A stretch of DNA of 64,000 nt from the NCBI GenBank assembly GCA_934216505.1, contig CAKQBW010000001.1, positions 85,788-149,787 on the forward strand, in the 5' to 3' direction. The stretch is from an uncultured Alphaproteobacteria bacterium. Its GTDB lineage: Bacteria; Pseudomonadota; Alphaproteobacteria; CAAHEQ01; UBA3637. Below the pieces are notes generated by a model. That model ran no database searches. It saw only the letters and a program-made list of their open reading frames with translations, and was not told where the DNA came from. This document shows, piece by piece, positions 38,259-44,129 of the stretch. Position 1 is the first letter of the stretch, and every line of letters starts with the position of its first letter. Made by a program: the position numbers and the translations under genes.

Positions 38259-38428
38259 ATTACAAGAGGAAGGTTGTTTTGCCCTCCTCTTTTTTATTTT
38301 AAACGAAAACGCCTTATTCGGCCAAAGATAATTTGAATACAGAAATACTCAATCAATTTACTTTTTTTGCTTGATTTTTGTTTTTTTTTCGTATCCTAAA
38401 AGTATAGGATCTTACTGAAAGGAAAAAA

Positions 38429-39223
38429 ATGACAAAAAAAACTGAAGAAAAGCCCCAATTAGTTCGCCAAGATGCTGATTTGCTGAACCCCATTGTCTCT
38501 ACTTGGACATATAAAGGAGAGATTATGGAGTTTATGGGGGTAAAGAGAACCCGCACCTTTGAAACAATGGACCACCCTGATTATGAACGAGGGGTGGGAT
38601 TCCGGGAACAAGAAGTTTGGATCCCCCGCCCTGGTCCAATGAAAGTCTTTAATAAAGATGGACTTTTAATTGAAGAAGGTACAGTAGATTTCGTTAAGGC
38701 TAAAGATGATATTGGCTCATGGAATTTGACTTATGTTGGGAAAATGACACGTTATGGCTATGATAAAAAGGGGAAACTTTTGTATCGTAGGGAAAGTGAA
38801 TTTTCACCTAAAGATTCTCATATAGAATGGAGTAAGCATTATGACAAAGAGGGTCAATTAGTAAGTGAATCCACTTATGATAAATACGGCAAGGAACGTT
38901 CATTTAAATTTTTTAACTCAGATTCAGGGGAACTAAGTTTCCGCACTTTTAATTCAAAGAGCGGGAAAGGCTATTATTTCTTTGGTGAGGAAAAAGCGGA
39001 TAAAAATCACCCTGAAGCACAGCGTTTAATTCGGGACAATATCGCCAGCAAGAAAACAGATAAAAAAGCACGGCGGGCCGCTTTAAAGGAAATTTTGGCG
39101 GCACGGCAAGAGGGGCAGACAGAAAAAGCACAAGAAATTCGTCATGAATTTGATAAAAGACCTCTACCAAAACCCTCTTTATGGGGTAAATTGACGACTC
39201 TTGTTAAAGGTAATCGGCGTTAA
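38429..39223 (+). CDS. MORN / YwqK-family repeat protein
   Basis: Tandem Y-x-x-G-x-x-x-G-x-W repeats (YGYDKKGKLLY, YDKEGQLVSESTY, YDKYGKERSF). The C-terminus is Lys/Arg-rich. Confidence 0.5.
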   Translation: MTKKTEEKPQLVRQDADLLNPIVSTWTYKGEIMEFMGVKRTRTFETMDHPDYERGVGFREQEVWIPRPGPMKVFNKDGLLIEEGTVDFVKAKDDIGSWNLTYVGKMTRYGYDKKGKLLYRRESEFSPKDSHIEWSKHYDKEGQLVSESTYDKYGKERSFKFFNSDSGELSFRTFNSKSGKGYYFFGEEKADKNHPEAQRLIRDNIASKKTDKKARRAALKEILAARQEGQTEKAQEIRHEFDKRPLPKPSLWGKLTTLVKGNRR

Positions 39224-39242
39224 AAAAGGAAAATCTTTTTTT

Positions 39243-39275
39243 AGGGAGGGCATTTGCCCTCCCCTTTTTGGGGTT
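39243..39275 (+). terminator. rho-independent terminator after the YwqK-family gene
   Basis: GGGAGGGCATTTGCCCTCCC hairpin followed by TTTTT. Confidence 0.7.
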
Positions 39276-39504
39276 ATTCTGCCCCACTCTGTCATTCCCT
39301 CACTTTTTACTTTTCCTATCATTTCCGCCGATGCGGGAATCTCGTCAAAAAGTACTTTATTTTACAAGATACCCGATCAGGTCGGGCATGACAATTCCCT
39401 GTTTTGGCCTGTATTTATGGGCTGTGTGAGGGAAAAAGAGAAATTTCAAAAAGCGGGGGTAAAAACAGGCGATAAAGCCCGTCAATAAAGGGAAGTAAGG
39501 TATA

Positions 39505-39524
39505 ACAAAAAGGATCGTTTTTGT
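39505..39524. promoter_or_regulatory. palindromic candidate operator site 1 (ACAAAAAgGATCGTTTTTGT)
   Basis: Near-perfect 20-bp palindrome centred on GATC, about 170 bp upstream of the pilin-like gene A. Confidence 0.4.
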
Positions 39525-39637
39525 CAATATACTTTTTCCCGTGTTTGAGGATTTTTATTATTTTACAATAACATATTGATTTTACATGAGAAAACACTCA
39601 TTTTAAAGTTTGATGGAATTGTCCTTTTTCCCCTATT

Positions 39638-39657
39638 CCAAAAACGATCGTTTTTGT
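39638..39657. promoter_or_regulatory. palindromic candidate operator site 2 (cCAAAAAcGATCGTTTTTGT) overlapping the putative -35/-10 of pilin-like gene A
   Basis: 18 of 19 positions match site 1. The AAAAACGATCGTTTTT core is a perfect palindrome. Centre-to-centre spacing to site 1 is about 133 bp. A TATAGT -10 candidate lies at 39658-63 and GGGAG RBS at 39683-87. Confidence 0.45.
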
Positions 39658-39694
39658 TATAGTAATTTTCATTCAATTTTGTGGGAGATTTTAC

Positions 39695-40942
39695 ATGCAA
39701 AAAACAAATGAATCAGGGCGCAGTATGGTTGAAATGCTGGGCGTGTTGGCGATTATTGGCGTCCTCTCTGTCGGTGGCGTAGCGGGATTTAACCTTGCCA
39801 TGAATAAACATTGTGCTAATAATACTGTGGTCTATGTCAATCAGTTAGCTGTCCAAGGAACAAGTCAAATGCTGATGGGCGTAAAACCTTCTTTGGGGCA
39901 ATACCCTGACAAAACTCCCAGTGGATACCCGAGTACCCTCACGACAGAAGAAACTAATCCCAATGCTTTTTATGTAAAAATATCTCAAGTGCCGAGCGCT
40001 GTTTGCAAGCAAATCTTAGGTCTTCAAAAAGGGTGGCAGGCCGTCAATGACATTGGCTTTTATAATGGGGCAACGACTTGCGATGACAAAGAAAATGTGG
40101 ATATGTGGTTTGAAATTAAATCTTCCCTGAATAAAGAAAATGAAAATGTCCATTGTAAATCTCATCAGGATTGTTATAACTGGTTAGGATATGAGGCCCG
40201 TTGTTCTCCCAAAGGAATTTGTCTCCCATACTGTGGAGAAAATCAAGTTAAAACACCCGTTGGTTGTTGTGATAAAAATCGTGTTTTCAATGGTGGCTGT
40301 TGCATAAGTGATGTTATTGAAGAAAACGGCATTAAAAAATGCTGTGCCGCCAATGCTGATGTTTCTATTTGTTGCCCTGAAAACGAATGGGGAATCAATA
40401 TAAAGGGTGTTTTATCATGCATCTCTTGTGATGATCCTCGTGCTTTAGACAGCGGCTTTAGTTGGGGGTATTGTAAAGTTTGCCCTAACCGTCTTCGTAA
40501 TGCGAACCAATGTGCTCTCGGTTGCGCAGATCCATACGCCGTCAAAACATTAAGTGGATATTGCTATTGTCCAATGGACAGGCCTGTCCAAACACGTGAT
40601 GGAAAATGCCATCCCTGTCATTATGAAGAACGTAGTTCTGCCCAACCTGTTATAGGCATGCTTACCTTAGGGAGTCAAGGCATGATACACTACTGTAATC
40701 GTCGTGGCATAACCTACTCTTGGCCCTGTATTGAGGGAGAGGTCGGTATGGCTAAAAATGATACTCTTGCCATGGCAGATGGGAGCACCTATACCGCAAC
40801 CACAACGGAAGGCGCCTGTCTGGCCTGTGATACAGTGAATATTTCAAAACTCCCCTATCAAGCCCAATGTGAATCTTGTGGGGGACACTGGGACGGTGAA
40901 AATTGGTACACAGGCGTTTGTGTGCCAAAAGAAACAGACTAA
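39695..40942 (+). CDS. type IV prepilin-like Cys-rich secreted/surface protein, paralog A
   Basis: N-terminus MQKTNESG|RSMVEMLGVLAIIGVLSVGG (Gly, Glu at +5, hydrophobic helix), 23 aa identical to paralog B. Shares the VCKQILGL… block with paralogs B and C. The C-terminal ~280 aa contain about 40 Cys (CC and CxxC clusters). Confidence 0.55.
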   Translation: MQKTNESGRSMVEMLGVLAIIGVLSVGGVAGFNLAMNKHCANNTVVYVNQLAVQGTSQMLMGVKPSLGQYPDKTPSGYPSTLTTEETNPNAFYVKISQVPSAVCKQILGLQKGWQAVNDIGFYNGATTCDDKENVDMWFEIKSSLNKENENVHCKSHQDCYNWLGYEARCSPKGICLPYCGENQVKTPVGCCDKNRVFNGGCCISDVIEENGIKKCCAANADVSICCPENEWGINIKGVLSCISCDDPRALDSGFSWGYCKVCPNRLRNANQCALGCADPYAVKTLSGYCYCPMDRPVQTRDGKCHPCHYEERSSAQPVIGMLTLGSQGMIHYCNRRGITYSWPCIEGEVGMAKNDTLAMADGSTYTATTTEGACLACDTVNISKLPYQAQCESCGGHWDGENWYTGVCVPKETD

Positions 40943-40998: not shown

Positions 40999-41073
40999 TG
41001 GTGGGTGCGACAGGGATTGAACCTGTGACCCCTACCGTGTGAAGGTAATGCTCTCCCGCTGAGCTACGCACCC
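40999..41073 (-). tRNA. tRNA-Val (anticodon CAC)
   Basis: Minus-strand cloverleaf: acceptor GGGTGCG/CGCACCC, D-arm GCTC AGCGGGA GAGC, anticodon loop TTCACAC, T-arm ACAGG TTCAATC CCTGT, encoded CCA. On the minus strand a terminator hairpin plus T-run follows at plus-strand coordinates 40970-40994. Confidence 0.85.
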
Positions 41074-41145: not shown

Positions 41146-41718
41146 TTGTTGAAAAATAATTTTGTATATGATAATTATAAAACTTATTTACACAAAAGAG
41201 GACAAATGAAAATTGAATTTAAAAATACTGATTCTTTTGAAAATCTGATAAGCACTATGAAAAAGGAAGATGAAATTGAATGCCCTGCTTTGGATTTTAT
41301 GGCGCAAAATTTAAAAGAATTACAAGAACGAATCAAGGCTGTGATTTCTTTGGGGGGCACCGTTTATTTCGTTAAGGAAAATTTAAGGTTTTCCCCCGAA
41401 AAGACACCTCAACAAGAAATGTTGTTTCACCTGTTAGAGGTCTTTAAAAACTTTGAGCAGGAAAATATCTTAAAAAGGCGGCGATTGGGAATTCAAAAAG
41501 CCAAAGAACAAGGAAAGTATGCCAAAGAACGGCGAAAAAAACTGCCCTCGGATTTACAAGAGGCCCTCTTAAAAGACAGAGAAAACGGCTTAAATGTATC
41601 GGAAATCATCCAAAAATACAAAATAAGCCGAAAGACATTTTATAACTATTCAAAAAATTCAACAAATAACATTTTAAAAAACATAGGCATTTTGTTGGGC
41701 AATGACTTGAAAGAATAA
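41146..41718 (+). CDS. serine recombinase (resolvase/invertase) family remnant: C-terminal half of the catalytic domain plus HTH, N-terminally truncated or degenerate
   Basis: LDFMAQNLKELQERIKAVISLGGTVYFV…EMLFHLLEVFKNFEQENILKRRRLGIQKAKEQGKYAKERRKK aligns with the LDRLGR…AEFERxxIxERTxxG region of Tn3/gamma-delta resolvases. The C-terminal …SEIIQKYKISRKTFYNY is the recombinase HTH. The N-terminal YxRVSTxxQ Ser-nucleophile block is absent. Adjacent to tRNA-Val. Confidence 0.55.
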   Translation: MLKNNFVYDNYKTYLHKRGQMKIEFKNTDSFENLISTMKKEDEIECPALDFMAQNLKELQERIKAVISLGGTVYFVKENLRFSPEKTPQQEMLFHLLEVFKNFEQENILKRRRLGIQKAKEQGKYAKERRKKLPSDLQEALLKDRENGLNVSEIIQKYKISRKTFYNYSKNSTNNILKNIGILLGNDLKE

Positions 41719-42802: not shown

Positions 42803-43882
42803 CTATTGACATAATGCGTAGAAGGTGCTGTAACGAGGGATGCCGTTCATGCTCTGACTGAAGGTACGGACGCCGAGTGCGTAGCTAGAATCATGACTGT
42901 TATTCGTCCAATAATAAGAACTCCCAAAAGCCACTTTCAAAGCGTTCCAGTCCGCCCCTGTACAATTACTCCCAGAACAATAACCAGTTTCATTATTATA
43001 TCCTCCCGTAATCCCTAAGTCAGAGAGCAAAGCTAAACTTTTTCCATGCGCCAAACACCAATTGCGTGCGGCCCACCAAGATATACCACTAGAAGAATAC
43101 AAAAATGTTTTGCCATTATAGGTTGTTTCTGTCCCATTGTCTAATGCTATACAGGTACCTGTTGTCGGAACAGCACCATTCTCCCATTTTCCCGTAATTT
43201 GACAATACTTCCCTGCTTCTTTACAATCGGCATTTGTCGTGCAATCCCCTGTGAGGTCTGTCTTACATTCCCCGTTTCCAGAGTTATCGCTCGGTTGCCA
43301 AATGCCTTCAGCACATTGACAGTAGCCATTCACACAAGTGGCCCCACCCGAACAACTGTCTGTGCATTCATCGCCTTTGGGCCCTGATGGCGCAGGGTCG
43401 TTGGGGGACAAATCGTTATTATAGGTAATCGTGGTACAACCGTCATCAATCTTTCGGATAATCCCATTTTCTCCTTTCATGGCTTTCATTTGGGTACAAA
43501 CTTCGTCTGGGACATTTTCCAAGGTCAAACTAAAACGCTTATCAGTATTTTTATTCCAATTGGCTAAGCCCGTAAATTTCGCCCCGCCAACTTCGTTATC
43601 TGTGAATTCGCCCGGTGTCGGAGCCTCAGCCCCTCTTTGAATCTGTGTGGAAACTACGACTGCCCGAAGGGAAGCTTGTTGCAACAATTCATTTGCCCGA
43701 TGTTTATTCATGGCGGTGGTATAGCCCACTATACCGCCCACACTTAAAACCCCAATAATCGCCAAAACGCCCAGCATTTCCACCATAGACCGCCCTGATT
43801 CTTCTTGCCGATAAAGGCGGGCGCCAAAAAGATAATGTTTTCCCCTACCCGAAAAGACTTTTTCTTTAATTGGACTTTTCAT
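42803..43882 (-). CDS. type IV prepilin-like Cys-rich protein with C-terminal C-type-lectin-like domain, paralog B (start codon uncertain)
   Basis: Contains …ESG|RSMVEMLGVLAIIGVLSVGG, identical at the protein level to paralog A. Has RAVVVSTQIQ and VCTQMKAM…DDGCTTITYNNDL blocks shared with paralog C, then an EGF-like Cys-rich stretch. The C-terminus has a GISWWAARNWCLAHGKSLALLSDL…YYWTNNSHD…YALCQ pattern resembling a C-type lectin-like domain (WxxAxxxCxxxGxxLAxxxS…C-terminal Cys). Confidence 0.5.
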   Translation of the reverse strand: MKSPIKEKVFSGRGKHYLFGARLYRQEESGRSMVEMLGVLAIIGVLSVGGIVGYTTAMNKHRANELLQQASLRAVVVSTQIQRGAEAPTPGEFTDNEVGGAKFTGLANWNKNTDKRFSLTLENVPDEVCTQMKAMKGENGIIRKIDDGCTTITYNNDLSPNDPAPSGPKGDECTDSCSGGATCVNGYCQCAEGIWQPSDNSGNGECKTDLTGDCTTNADCKEAGKYCQITGKWENGAVPTTGTCIALDNGTETTYNGKTFLYSSSGISWWAARNWCLAHGKSLALLSDLGITGGYNNETGYCSGSNCTGADWNALKVAFGSSYYWTNNSHDSSYALGVRTFSQSMNGIPRYSTFYALCQ

Positions 43883-44129
43883 ATTCTAAAACTCCCATAA
43901 TTAAAAAATCGCTGTGATGAGCAGCGGTTGGAAGCTAGAAAACTATTACAGAAATAGCGTCGCATATTGGGGCGTAAATAGGCCTGTATTTTGCGACCAT
44001 CCAACCATAAAGATTGGAATTTTTACATCGTTTGATGTCTGTATTGAAGGTTTTCTAGGCCTCCACCAGAGGAATCACCTCTGGCAAATTCACACTAGCA
44101 AAAAATAAATTAAATATCAAGTACAAAAA

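Follow-up and report, generated by a model that had tools for sequence, protein, structure and literature searches.

A putative invertible split-promoter switch on hix-like sites upstream of a pilin-like gene in uncultured Alphaproteobacteria

The recombinases of the Din family (Hin/hix, Gin/gix, Cin/cix, Pin/pix and Min/mix) control surface structures by acting on 26-bp sites in inverted orientation, in which 12-bp inverted half-sites surround a 2-bp crossover. In the published table of these sites hixL reads TTCTTGAAAACC AA GGTTTTTGATAA, mix ends in AA CGTTTTTATGCC and pixR ends in AA CGTTTATGAAAA (PMC3241671). We analysed a 64-kb stretch of DNA (hereafter the window) from an uncultured gut Alphaproteobacteria bacterium, in which two near-identical palindromes, here called sites 1 and 2, lie in front of a gene for a pilin-like protein (pilin-like gene A), and compared them with this and other described systems. 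The Din sites carry an A/T tract at positions 3-7 from the centre and then C/G, at the same distances as in the window, and the half-sites of mix and pix are likewise of the CGTTTTT.. type. However, the natural Din sites are centred on AA or GA, whereas those in the window have a symmetric AT, and the Din segments span 1-4 kb with the recombinase gene inside or adjoining, whereas the segment in the window is of 133 bp and geneless. A Fis-bound recombinational enhancer in cis is a further hallmark of the Din subfamily; none was identified here, though no search aimed at it was made. Where recombinase genes adjoin sites of the window type in other genomes, they sit outside the segment, unlike in the Din systems, and the -10 element of the window is likewise outside.

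Mpi (ssr2) of Bacteroides fragilis resembles the proposed system in being a small serine recombinase that acts in trans on many short invertible promoters of surface-structure genes, but it belongs to another phylum and uses another repeat sequence. The Mpi segments are of ~170-190 bp and contain the whole promoter, whereas the promoter in the window is proposed to be split. A single Mpi recombinase flips seven unlinked promoters, some of which are strongly OFF-biased (PMC10403206). The fimS element of Escherichia coli is also a short invertible promoter element for a pilus gene, with IHF bending inside. It is served by the tyrosine recombinases FimB/FimE, has 9-bp repeats and a length of 314 bp and, unlike the window segment, encloses the whole promoter. 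The resolvases of Tn3 and gamma-delta bind res as dimers on promoter-overlapping palindromes and double as repressors of tnpA and tnpR. The res site consists of three subsites of unequal geometry within ~120 bp beside the gene and is acted upon as directly repeated copies; in contrast, the window has two equal inverted sites far from its recombinase homologue. The pap switch of uropathogenic E. coli, which works through two GATC sites, Dam and Lrp, is alike in having these sites in front of a pilus gene, at a distance of roughly 100-130 bp from each other.

We favour the reading that the 133-bp region is an invertible split-promoter switch, which was assembled OFF and which an unlinked invertase flips in trans, and regard the chances of this being correct as evenly balanced. 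In kind, such a switch is a variant of known invertons. If true, it would differ from them in its unusually short unit of 133 bp, in the symmetric crossover core and in the split promoter, whose -35 would lie within the unit and whose -10 would lie beyond it. If the segment flips, it would signify multi-locus phase variation of pilin-like and small secreted proteins in uncultured host-associated Alphaproteobacteria, comparable to that governed by Mpi of Bacteroides but built on hix-like sites.

The palindrome pair and the proposed split promoter

Site 1 (ACAAAAAGGATCGTTTTTGT, 39505-39524) and site 2 (CCAAAAACGATCGTTTTTGT, 39638-39657) are identical at 18/20 positions, with a start-to-start distance of 133 bp. 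Site 2 has an 18-nt core that is perfectly palindromic, and site 1 is complementary at 9/10. The first-pass annotation, made from the letters of the window, had already noticed two near-identical palindromes of near-perfect symmetry, the downstream one overlapping the -35/-10 candidates with TATAGT at 39658-39663; these positions and the symmetry hold, and its count of 18/19 agreeing positions has to be corrected to 18/20. Both window copies of the CAAAAA-S-GATCGTTTTTG pattern are sites 1 and 2. A search for the core CAAAAANGATCGTTTTTG with at most one mismatch on both strands gave 2 matches in the whole 64 kb, where shuffled sequence would be expected to give 0.01, and no third site was found in the window, searches at relaxed stringency included.

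The similarity of the palindromes runs on asymmetrically, on their outer sides only, and makes them the arms of an inverted repeat, which was detected by a repeat finder and had escaped the first-pass annotation. The 23-nt arms, TATAACAAAAAGGATCGTTTTTG (39501-39523) and CAAAAACGATCGTTTTTGTTATA (39639-39661), are complementary at 22/23 positions and have 115 nt between them. Placed in register with the Din-family table (PMC3241671), site 1 reads ATAACAAAAAGG AT CGTTTTTGTCAA (39502..39527, central AT at 39514-39515) and site 2 reads ATTCCAAAAACG AT CGTTTTTGTTAT (39635..39660, central AT at 39647-39648, in the spacer of the pilin-like promoter). Both sites are dimer-type 12-2-12 palindromes with the shared central dinucleotide AT. 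They are almost certainly the binding sites of a dimeric helix-turn-helix (HTH) protein, and as part of the favoured reading they are best read as putative hix-like binding and crossover sites of a small serine recombinase of the Hin/Din or Mpi type. The motif was found in no paper of the literature searched; judged from sequence comparison, the two sites are genuine, conserved and functional, and they represent a family of apparent serine-recombinase sites that had not been described before.

The putative invertible unit (39515..39647) measures 133 bp from crossover to crossover and is AT-rich, with 27% G+C between the cores. The best promoter of the pilin-like gene spans its proximal end. 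The extended -10, TGTTATAGT (39655..39663, plus strand), which contains the TATAGT, lies outside the unit; its TG is supplied by the outer arm of site 2 (TTTTTG), and the 17-bp spacer is filled by site 2. The palindrome therefore overlaps the core promoter, as the first-pass annotation had stated of the downstream site. The hexamer at the present -35 position is ATTCCA (39635..39640, plus strand), with 3/6 matches. A perfect -35 hexamer, TTGACA, occupies 39522..39527 on the minus strand in the inner flank of site 1 (minus-strand flank GTATATTGACAAAAACGA) and now faces away from the gene; it is invariant in 5/5 window-clade variants and in 10/10 rumen-clade loci. Inversion in silico between the central ATs converts ATTCCA-17-TATAGT (8/12) into TTGACA-17-TATAGT plus TG (11/12), which suggests that the assembled state is OFF. 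The gain, from 8-9/12 to 11/12, recurs in 5/5 window-clade variants and also in five rumen loci, there as TTGACA-17-TTTAAT. The junction sequences predicted for the flipped state are GGTATAACAAAAAGGATCGTTTTTGGAATAGG and ATATTGACAAAAACGATCGTTTTTGTTATAGT, and also ...GGTATAACAAAAAGGATCGTTTTTGGAATAGGGG... joined with ...GTATATTGACAAAAACGATCGTTTTTGTTATAGTAATTT....

On its own side the outward TTGACA has no usable -10 in the rumen loci or in the related loci L061, L063 and L068, and in the window the leftward candidate is TTGACA-17-TATACC, from which the final T is absent. A leftward promoter was considered as a conserved feature and rejected, the -10 position not being promoter-like in L061, L063, L068 and the rumen loci. 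At L013 a TTGACA-17-TAATTT arrangement spans a site, with a -10 of only 3/6 that makes it a weak example of an 'ON' promoter.

The two sites of the window and ~14 nt of inner flank at each recur unchanged in strain L005, where the segment interior and 5' untranslated region (UTR) show ~70% identity. At the segment centre (39569..39581, minus strand) the sequence fits the core consensus of IHF (AATCAATATGTTA = WATCAANNNNTTR); the match is found at the same position in four window-clade variants, including the diverged L005 and L068, with ~0.027 such matches expected per segment; IHF possibly plays a role there. A-tract phasing was considered as evidence of curvature and left unused: several relatives show it significantly, the window does not, and the sites themselves confound it. 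The switch is also embedded in a larger unit common to paralogous loci, a 475-bp 5' module (39312..39786, plus strand) made up of 190 nt of upstream DNA, the switch and the UTR together with the initial 30 codons, which is 90% identical in L061 over this stretch only.

In the mechanism we propose, a recombinase dimer would sit on each 26-bp site, the AT-rich segment would be bent, possibly via IHF at its centre, and the dimers would synapse, cleave at the central AT and swap strands, upon which the segment would flip. The promoter would be split over site 2, its extended -10 fixed outside the unit and its -35 provided by whichever segment end abuts. As assembled, ATTCCA would stand at -35 and give a weak or OFF promoter, and inversion would bring TTGACA to 17 bp and give a strong, ON promoter. 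The catalytic recombinase would come from elsewhere in the genome and act in trans, like Mpi in Bacteroides fragilis; trans action is required because the window holds no catalytic recombinase and the gene adjacent to the locus is catalytically dead. We infer both the actual inversion in the source organism and the existence of the trans-acting invertase, and the reading as a whole, these two steps included, is about as likely as not.

Distribution of the motif and its link to recombinase genes

A scan of 185,579 species genomes with the query CAAAAASGATCGTTTTTGT returned 54 motif loci. At 19 of these, in 15 genomes, an intact serine recombinase open reading frame (ORF) with YxRVST and LDRxxR starts at most ~140 bp from the motif. 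The 15 genomes are those of Alpha-, Beta- and Gammaproteobacteria and include Nitrosomonas, Parvularcula, Litorimonas, Ponticaulis, Thalassospira, Stappia, Hwanghaeella and others. Most of the recombinase-linked loci have a partner site 117-166 bp away, and pairs with asymmetric cores are inverted (CAAAAAGGATCGTTTTTG vs CAAAAACGATCCTTTTTG, that is GGATCG vs CGATCC). Degenerate partner sites still keep the central AT, with the core variants CTATCC, CCATCC and TCATCA, and a gene for a signal-peptide protein is found on the far side of the recombinase-linked pairs. An intact recombinase beside two equal inverted sites has no obvious substrate but the short segment between them. It is because of this linkage at 19 loci, taken with the hix-like architecture and the inverted repeat, that inversion is preferred to looping repression, or is thought to act besides it. 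As members of the site family occur with intact recombinases in cultured bacteria, namely Nitrosomonas (N. marina Nm22), Litorimonas (L. haliclonae CIP111178), Thalassospira (T. alkalitolerans JCM 18968), Ponticaulis (P. profundi) and Stappia (S. stellulata DSM 5886), the mechanism is directly testable.

The relatives of the window carry the pair in front of genes for exported proteins. In an Alphaproteobacteria metagenome-assembled genome (MAG) from yak rumen it stands, with a spacing of 132-134 bp, before at least 10 paralogues, partly arranged in tandem, that encode small Cys-rich secreted proteins, and in a roe-deer MAG it is spaced 154 bp and precedes a pilin-like gene. The window species has it at the present locus with three pilin alleles and at other loci (L061, L062), at least three loci or alleles altogether. 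No recombinase gene was seen around the relatives from rumen, roe deer and the window species (within 8 kb for rumen and roe deer). From these positions the motif is, as far as its sequence context indicates, a promoter-proximal mark of a set of surface- and secreted-protein genes in host-associated Alphaproteobacteria. The genome-wide motif search by which the first-pass annotation had hoped to define a regulon did yield a promoter-proximal set of at least three loci in the window species and at least ten in the rumen relative, and the defined DNA motif is a means of finding such switches without read data.

The motif was absent from viral contigs. Plasmid relatives of the site-adjacent recombinases are all <60% identical to them, the three that were inspected use other sites, and among the plasmid relatives there were no near-identical replicons differing by an inversion. 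Two further occurrences are recorded here. In the rumen MAG contig JAGCYU010000013.1 (L076, 221-1066) two switch-plus-gene units stand in tandem, each with its palindromes 133 bp apart. In the chromosome of Sulfidibacter corallicola (L024, 2846-3879) two perfect palindromes with 34-bp inverted flanks lie ~1 kb apart, directly upstream of two divergent paralogous genes for TPR proteins, with no recombinase in the surrounding 8 kb of sequence.

Inversion weighed against other explanations

Unbiased flipping should leave a mixture of orientations among related loci, and the single orientation observed weighs against an invertible segment: a flipped copy was present in 0 of ~25 loci, as seen in assemblies, not in reads. 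The set comprised the window, L001, L005, L061, L063, L068, ten rumen, eight Nitrosomonas and two Thalassospira loci, with orientation taken relative to the flanking genes, and the assemblies were reached via exact-protein contig look-ups, one genome scan and one metagenome scan. The outcome could fit a strong OFF bias, which is known at some Mpi promoters and would be expected if one of many paralogues is ON per cell. An exact look-up of junction ORFs in a collection of 15 billion proteins was uninformative, as the predicted ON ORFs were absent and the OFF control ORFs were absent too. Some contigs break at or near the sites: the first base of the rumen contig L079 is precisely the first one that the predicted ON and OFF junctions share, that of L062 falls within site 2, and L048, L009 and L013 stop shortly after the distal site. 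These contig ends are compatible with mixed orientations but are also explicable by the repeated 475-bp 5' module.

Several other observations count on the same side. The 64-kb window has no catalytically competent recombinase, its sole serine recombinase ORF being a truncated one at 41206-41718. The dependence of promoter strength on orientation in silico is weakened by five rumen loci that score 10/12 as assembled, where proximal sites have decayed and GTGACA/TTGGCA stands 18 bp from TTTAAT. Besides, xGACAAAAA is near the consensus half-site of the whole site family, and owing to this and to the five rumen loci that are already decent promoters, the TTGACA at the far end cannot be read as an unambiguous promoter signature. 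Promoters with an extended -10 can function even where the -35 is poor, and the present orientation may therefore be other than OFF, with appreciable transcription. The unit of 133 bp is shorter than any serine-invertase segment for which we have a source, the shortest being the 200-bp segment that Hin flips between symmetric hixC sites (PMC2427008). A-tract phasing in the window segment does not reach significance (p ~0.07).

The truncated ORF (41206..41718, plus strand) encodes the only recombinase homologue near the switch. The 170-aa protein covers positions 50-145 of 145 of the Pfam Resolvase model, followed by a helix-turn-helix, and aligns to residues 53-179 of gamma-delta resolvase. 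Compared with gamma-delta resolvase (PDB 2gm4) and the nearest full-length relatives, its first ~43 residues are gone, including the YxRVS nucleophile motif, and it reads LDFMAQN where the enzymes have LDRLxRN, the catalytic arginines being absent. With the nucleophile region lost and LDRLxRN changed to LDFMAQN, it is catalytically dead. The only NCBIfam model that it touches is that of the Mpi family (NF009949), with an E-value of 2e-5 and 24 bits against a cut-off of 272; on this model the site-adjacent recombinases of other genomes score 39-54 bits and its nearest relatives 53-71 bits, all below the cut-off. Truncated recombinases of this kind do not form a conserved family, as an exhaustive profile search returned only full-length recombinases of 28-35% identity. 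That a serine recombinase without its catalytic N-terminus and arginines has been domesticated here as a transcription factor on former hix-like crossover sites is unlikely in our judgement; if true, it would mean that an inverton has turned into a repressor-operator circuit for a hypervariable pilin-like gene family.

A broader alternative is that the palindromes form an operator pair without inversion, at which a recombinase-derived dimeric HTH protein, either the 170-aa protein or an intact recombinase, represses the gene and site 1 helps via a bent loop. Since site 2 spans the promoter spacer and its outer arm gives the TG of the extended -10, its occupancy would block RNA polymerase, much as a resolvase represses the promoters within res. 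The 170-aa protein keeps the E-helix region and an HTH with ISRKTFYNY, close to the ISRQTIYNY of its full-length relatives, and its ORF has its own ribosome-binding site, is retained beside pilin alleles of 62% identity and shows a ratio of non-synonymous to synonymous substitution rates (dN/dS) of ~0.24 between strains, although this rests on 8 differences (4 synonymous and 4 conservative non-synonymous), which are too few. The one orientation of every switch copy would suit an operator pair, and the IHF-like site would aid looping too. However, such a pair leaves unexplained why the repeat extends beyond the palindromes and why a TTGACA that is both perfect and conserved points away from any -10. 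Catalytically intact recombinases adjoin the sites in 15 other genomes, the truncated protein has no conserved family and its nearest relatives are full-length and 28-35% identical, and no such gene occurs within 8 kb of the loci from rumen and roe deer. The spacing also speaks against phased operators, as 133 bp corresponds to ~12.7 helical turns rather than an integral number, and among relatives spacings range between 117 and 166 bp. Phased looping, a form of the DNA looping that the first-pass annotation thought possible, is for this reason not favoured. The truncated recombinase is the only nearby HTH candidate. Of the repressor pair that it envisaged, the dimeric HTH binding sites stand, but the binder indicated is a serine site-specific recombinase and not a classical repressor. 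On balance an operator pair without inversion competes seriously with the favoured reading but is less probable. A segment that was once invertible and became locked when its cognate invertase decayed, with fixed expression from the extended -10, would equally show one orientation in all copies; it would also account for the adjacent recombinase gene being truncated and without catalytic residues, and for several rumen proximal sites that have decayed (4-A tract, TTTTCG) beside a decent fixed promoter. Such a fossil appears unlikely, as both sites are perfect across diverged alleles and paralogous loci while the interior drifts, which argues for ongoing selection on the sites. Moreover, the truncated protein shares only 15-19% identity with the site-adjacent recombinases and therefore need not be the cognate enzyme.

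The central GATC in each palindrome had led the first-pass annotation to propose a methylation-sensitive switch as in pap, and the distance of 133 bp and the position upstream of a pilus-type gene also recall the two GATC sites of pap. In such a switch a regulator and Dam would compete for the two GATCs and thereby set a heritable ON or OFF state. This we consider highly improbable. GATC occurs 70 times in the window against 223 expected (0.31), and no Dam-like methyltransferase was found in the window, where the only NPPY motif lies in a PrmC-like ORF. The source organism groups with Alphaproteobacteria. Alphaproteobacteria typically use CcrM (GANTC) rather than Dam. No Lrp-family gene was present among 18 neighbouring ORFs scanned, and the motif is tied to recombinase genes, not to Lrp or Dam. 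Partner sites often lose the GATC but keep the central AT and the A/T arms, which fits a crossover dinucleotide and not a methylation target. The 23-nt inverted repeat around a short AT-rich segment, with a resolvase-family gene and a tRNA gene nearby, might otherwise be taken for the terminal inverted repeats of a miniature inverted-repeat transposable element (MITE) or insertion sequence fragment, or for the res site of a transposon resolvase. This was rejected, and we give it hardly any credence. There is no target-site duplication, no transposase in the neighbourhood and a housekeeping chromosomal context; the unit shared by paralogues is the 475-bp module, which reaches into the coding region and is not bounded by the repeats. 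The sites are equal in 12-2-12 geometry and central AT, where res subsites would differ, the recombinase gene is 1.5 kb away, beyond another gene and a tRNA, and the sites used by plasmid resolvases that are related to the site-adjacent enzymes are different. Even taken together, the pap-like switch and the MITE or res site are quite unlikely.

The pilin-like gene and its surroundings

Pilin-like gene A (39695..40942, plus strand, ATG at 39695) encodes a protein of 415 aa and is the candidate gene under control of the proposed switch, as its place downstream of the split promoter suggests. Its N-terminus, GRSMVEMLGVLAIIGVLSVGG, resembles that of prepilins, and its homologues are named type II secretion or Tfp pilus proteins in Alphaproteobacteria MAGs. 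The pilin-like locus is hypervariable, the proteins of the window and of strain L063 (1201-2460) being 62% identical in amino acids and the flanks 94-99% identical in DNA. Three pilin alleles are known at this locus, those of the window (39695-40942), L063 (1201-2460) and L068 (442-1752). A 96%-identical copy was found in another sample in another genomic context, beside tsaD (L062).

The gene upstream (38429-39223) encodes 264 aa with a weak match to MORN repeats and ends at 39223; its terminator-like hairpin (39244..39263, plus strand) is the left limit of the intergenic region. This 264-aa gene, in the stretch at 38316-39226, is missing from the otherwise collinear strain L063. A tRNA-Val gene (40999..41073, minus strand) separates the pilin-like gene from the truncated recombinase gene, and a search of Rfam around the switch gave only tRNAs. 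The wider neighbourhood is of housekeeping character, with thioredoxin, SLT transglycosylase, QueH, GAPDH, succinyl-CoA ligase, a class I tRNA ligase and others. Across the window, many palindromes of 4 bp are strongly depleted, with observed/expected ratios of 0.06 for TCGA, 0.18 for CTAG, 0.18 for ACGT, 0.22 for AGCT, 0.31 for GATC and 0.32 for GTAC, and GGCC is enriched ~2-fold.

A second pilin-like gene (42803-43882) has a leader of ~200 nt upstream at 43883-44110 on the minus strand. This leader is homologous to those of genes for small secreted proteins of rumen Alphaproteobacteria (L069, 225-420) and to pilin-like leaders (L064, L065). RNAalifold on four sequences gave 20 pairs, 7 of them with compensatory changes, and Rfam reported only a sub-threshold match to sRNA-Xcc1 at 43918-44006, which scored 28 bits where the cut-off is 53; the leader may be an undescribed cis-regulatory RNA. 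In a Hadza gut metagenome the 5' leader of a pilin-like homologue (L067, ~880-920) contains a (CA)n repeat of roughly 19 units, an approximate count, which is a possible tract for phase variation by slipped-strand mispairing.

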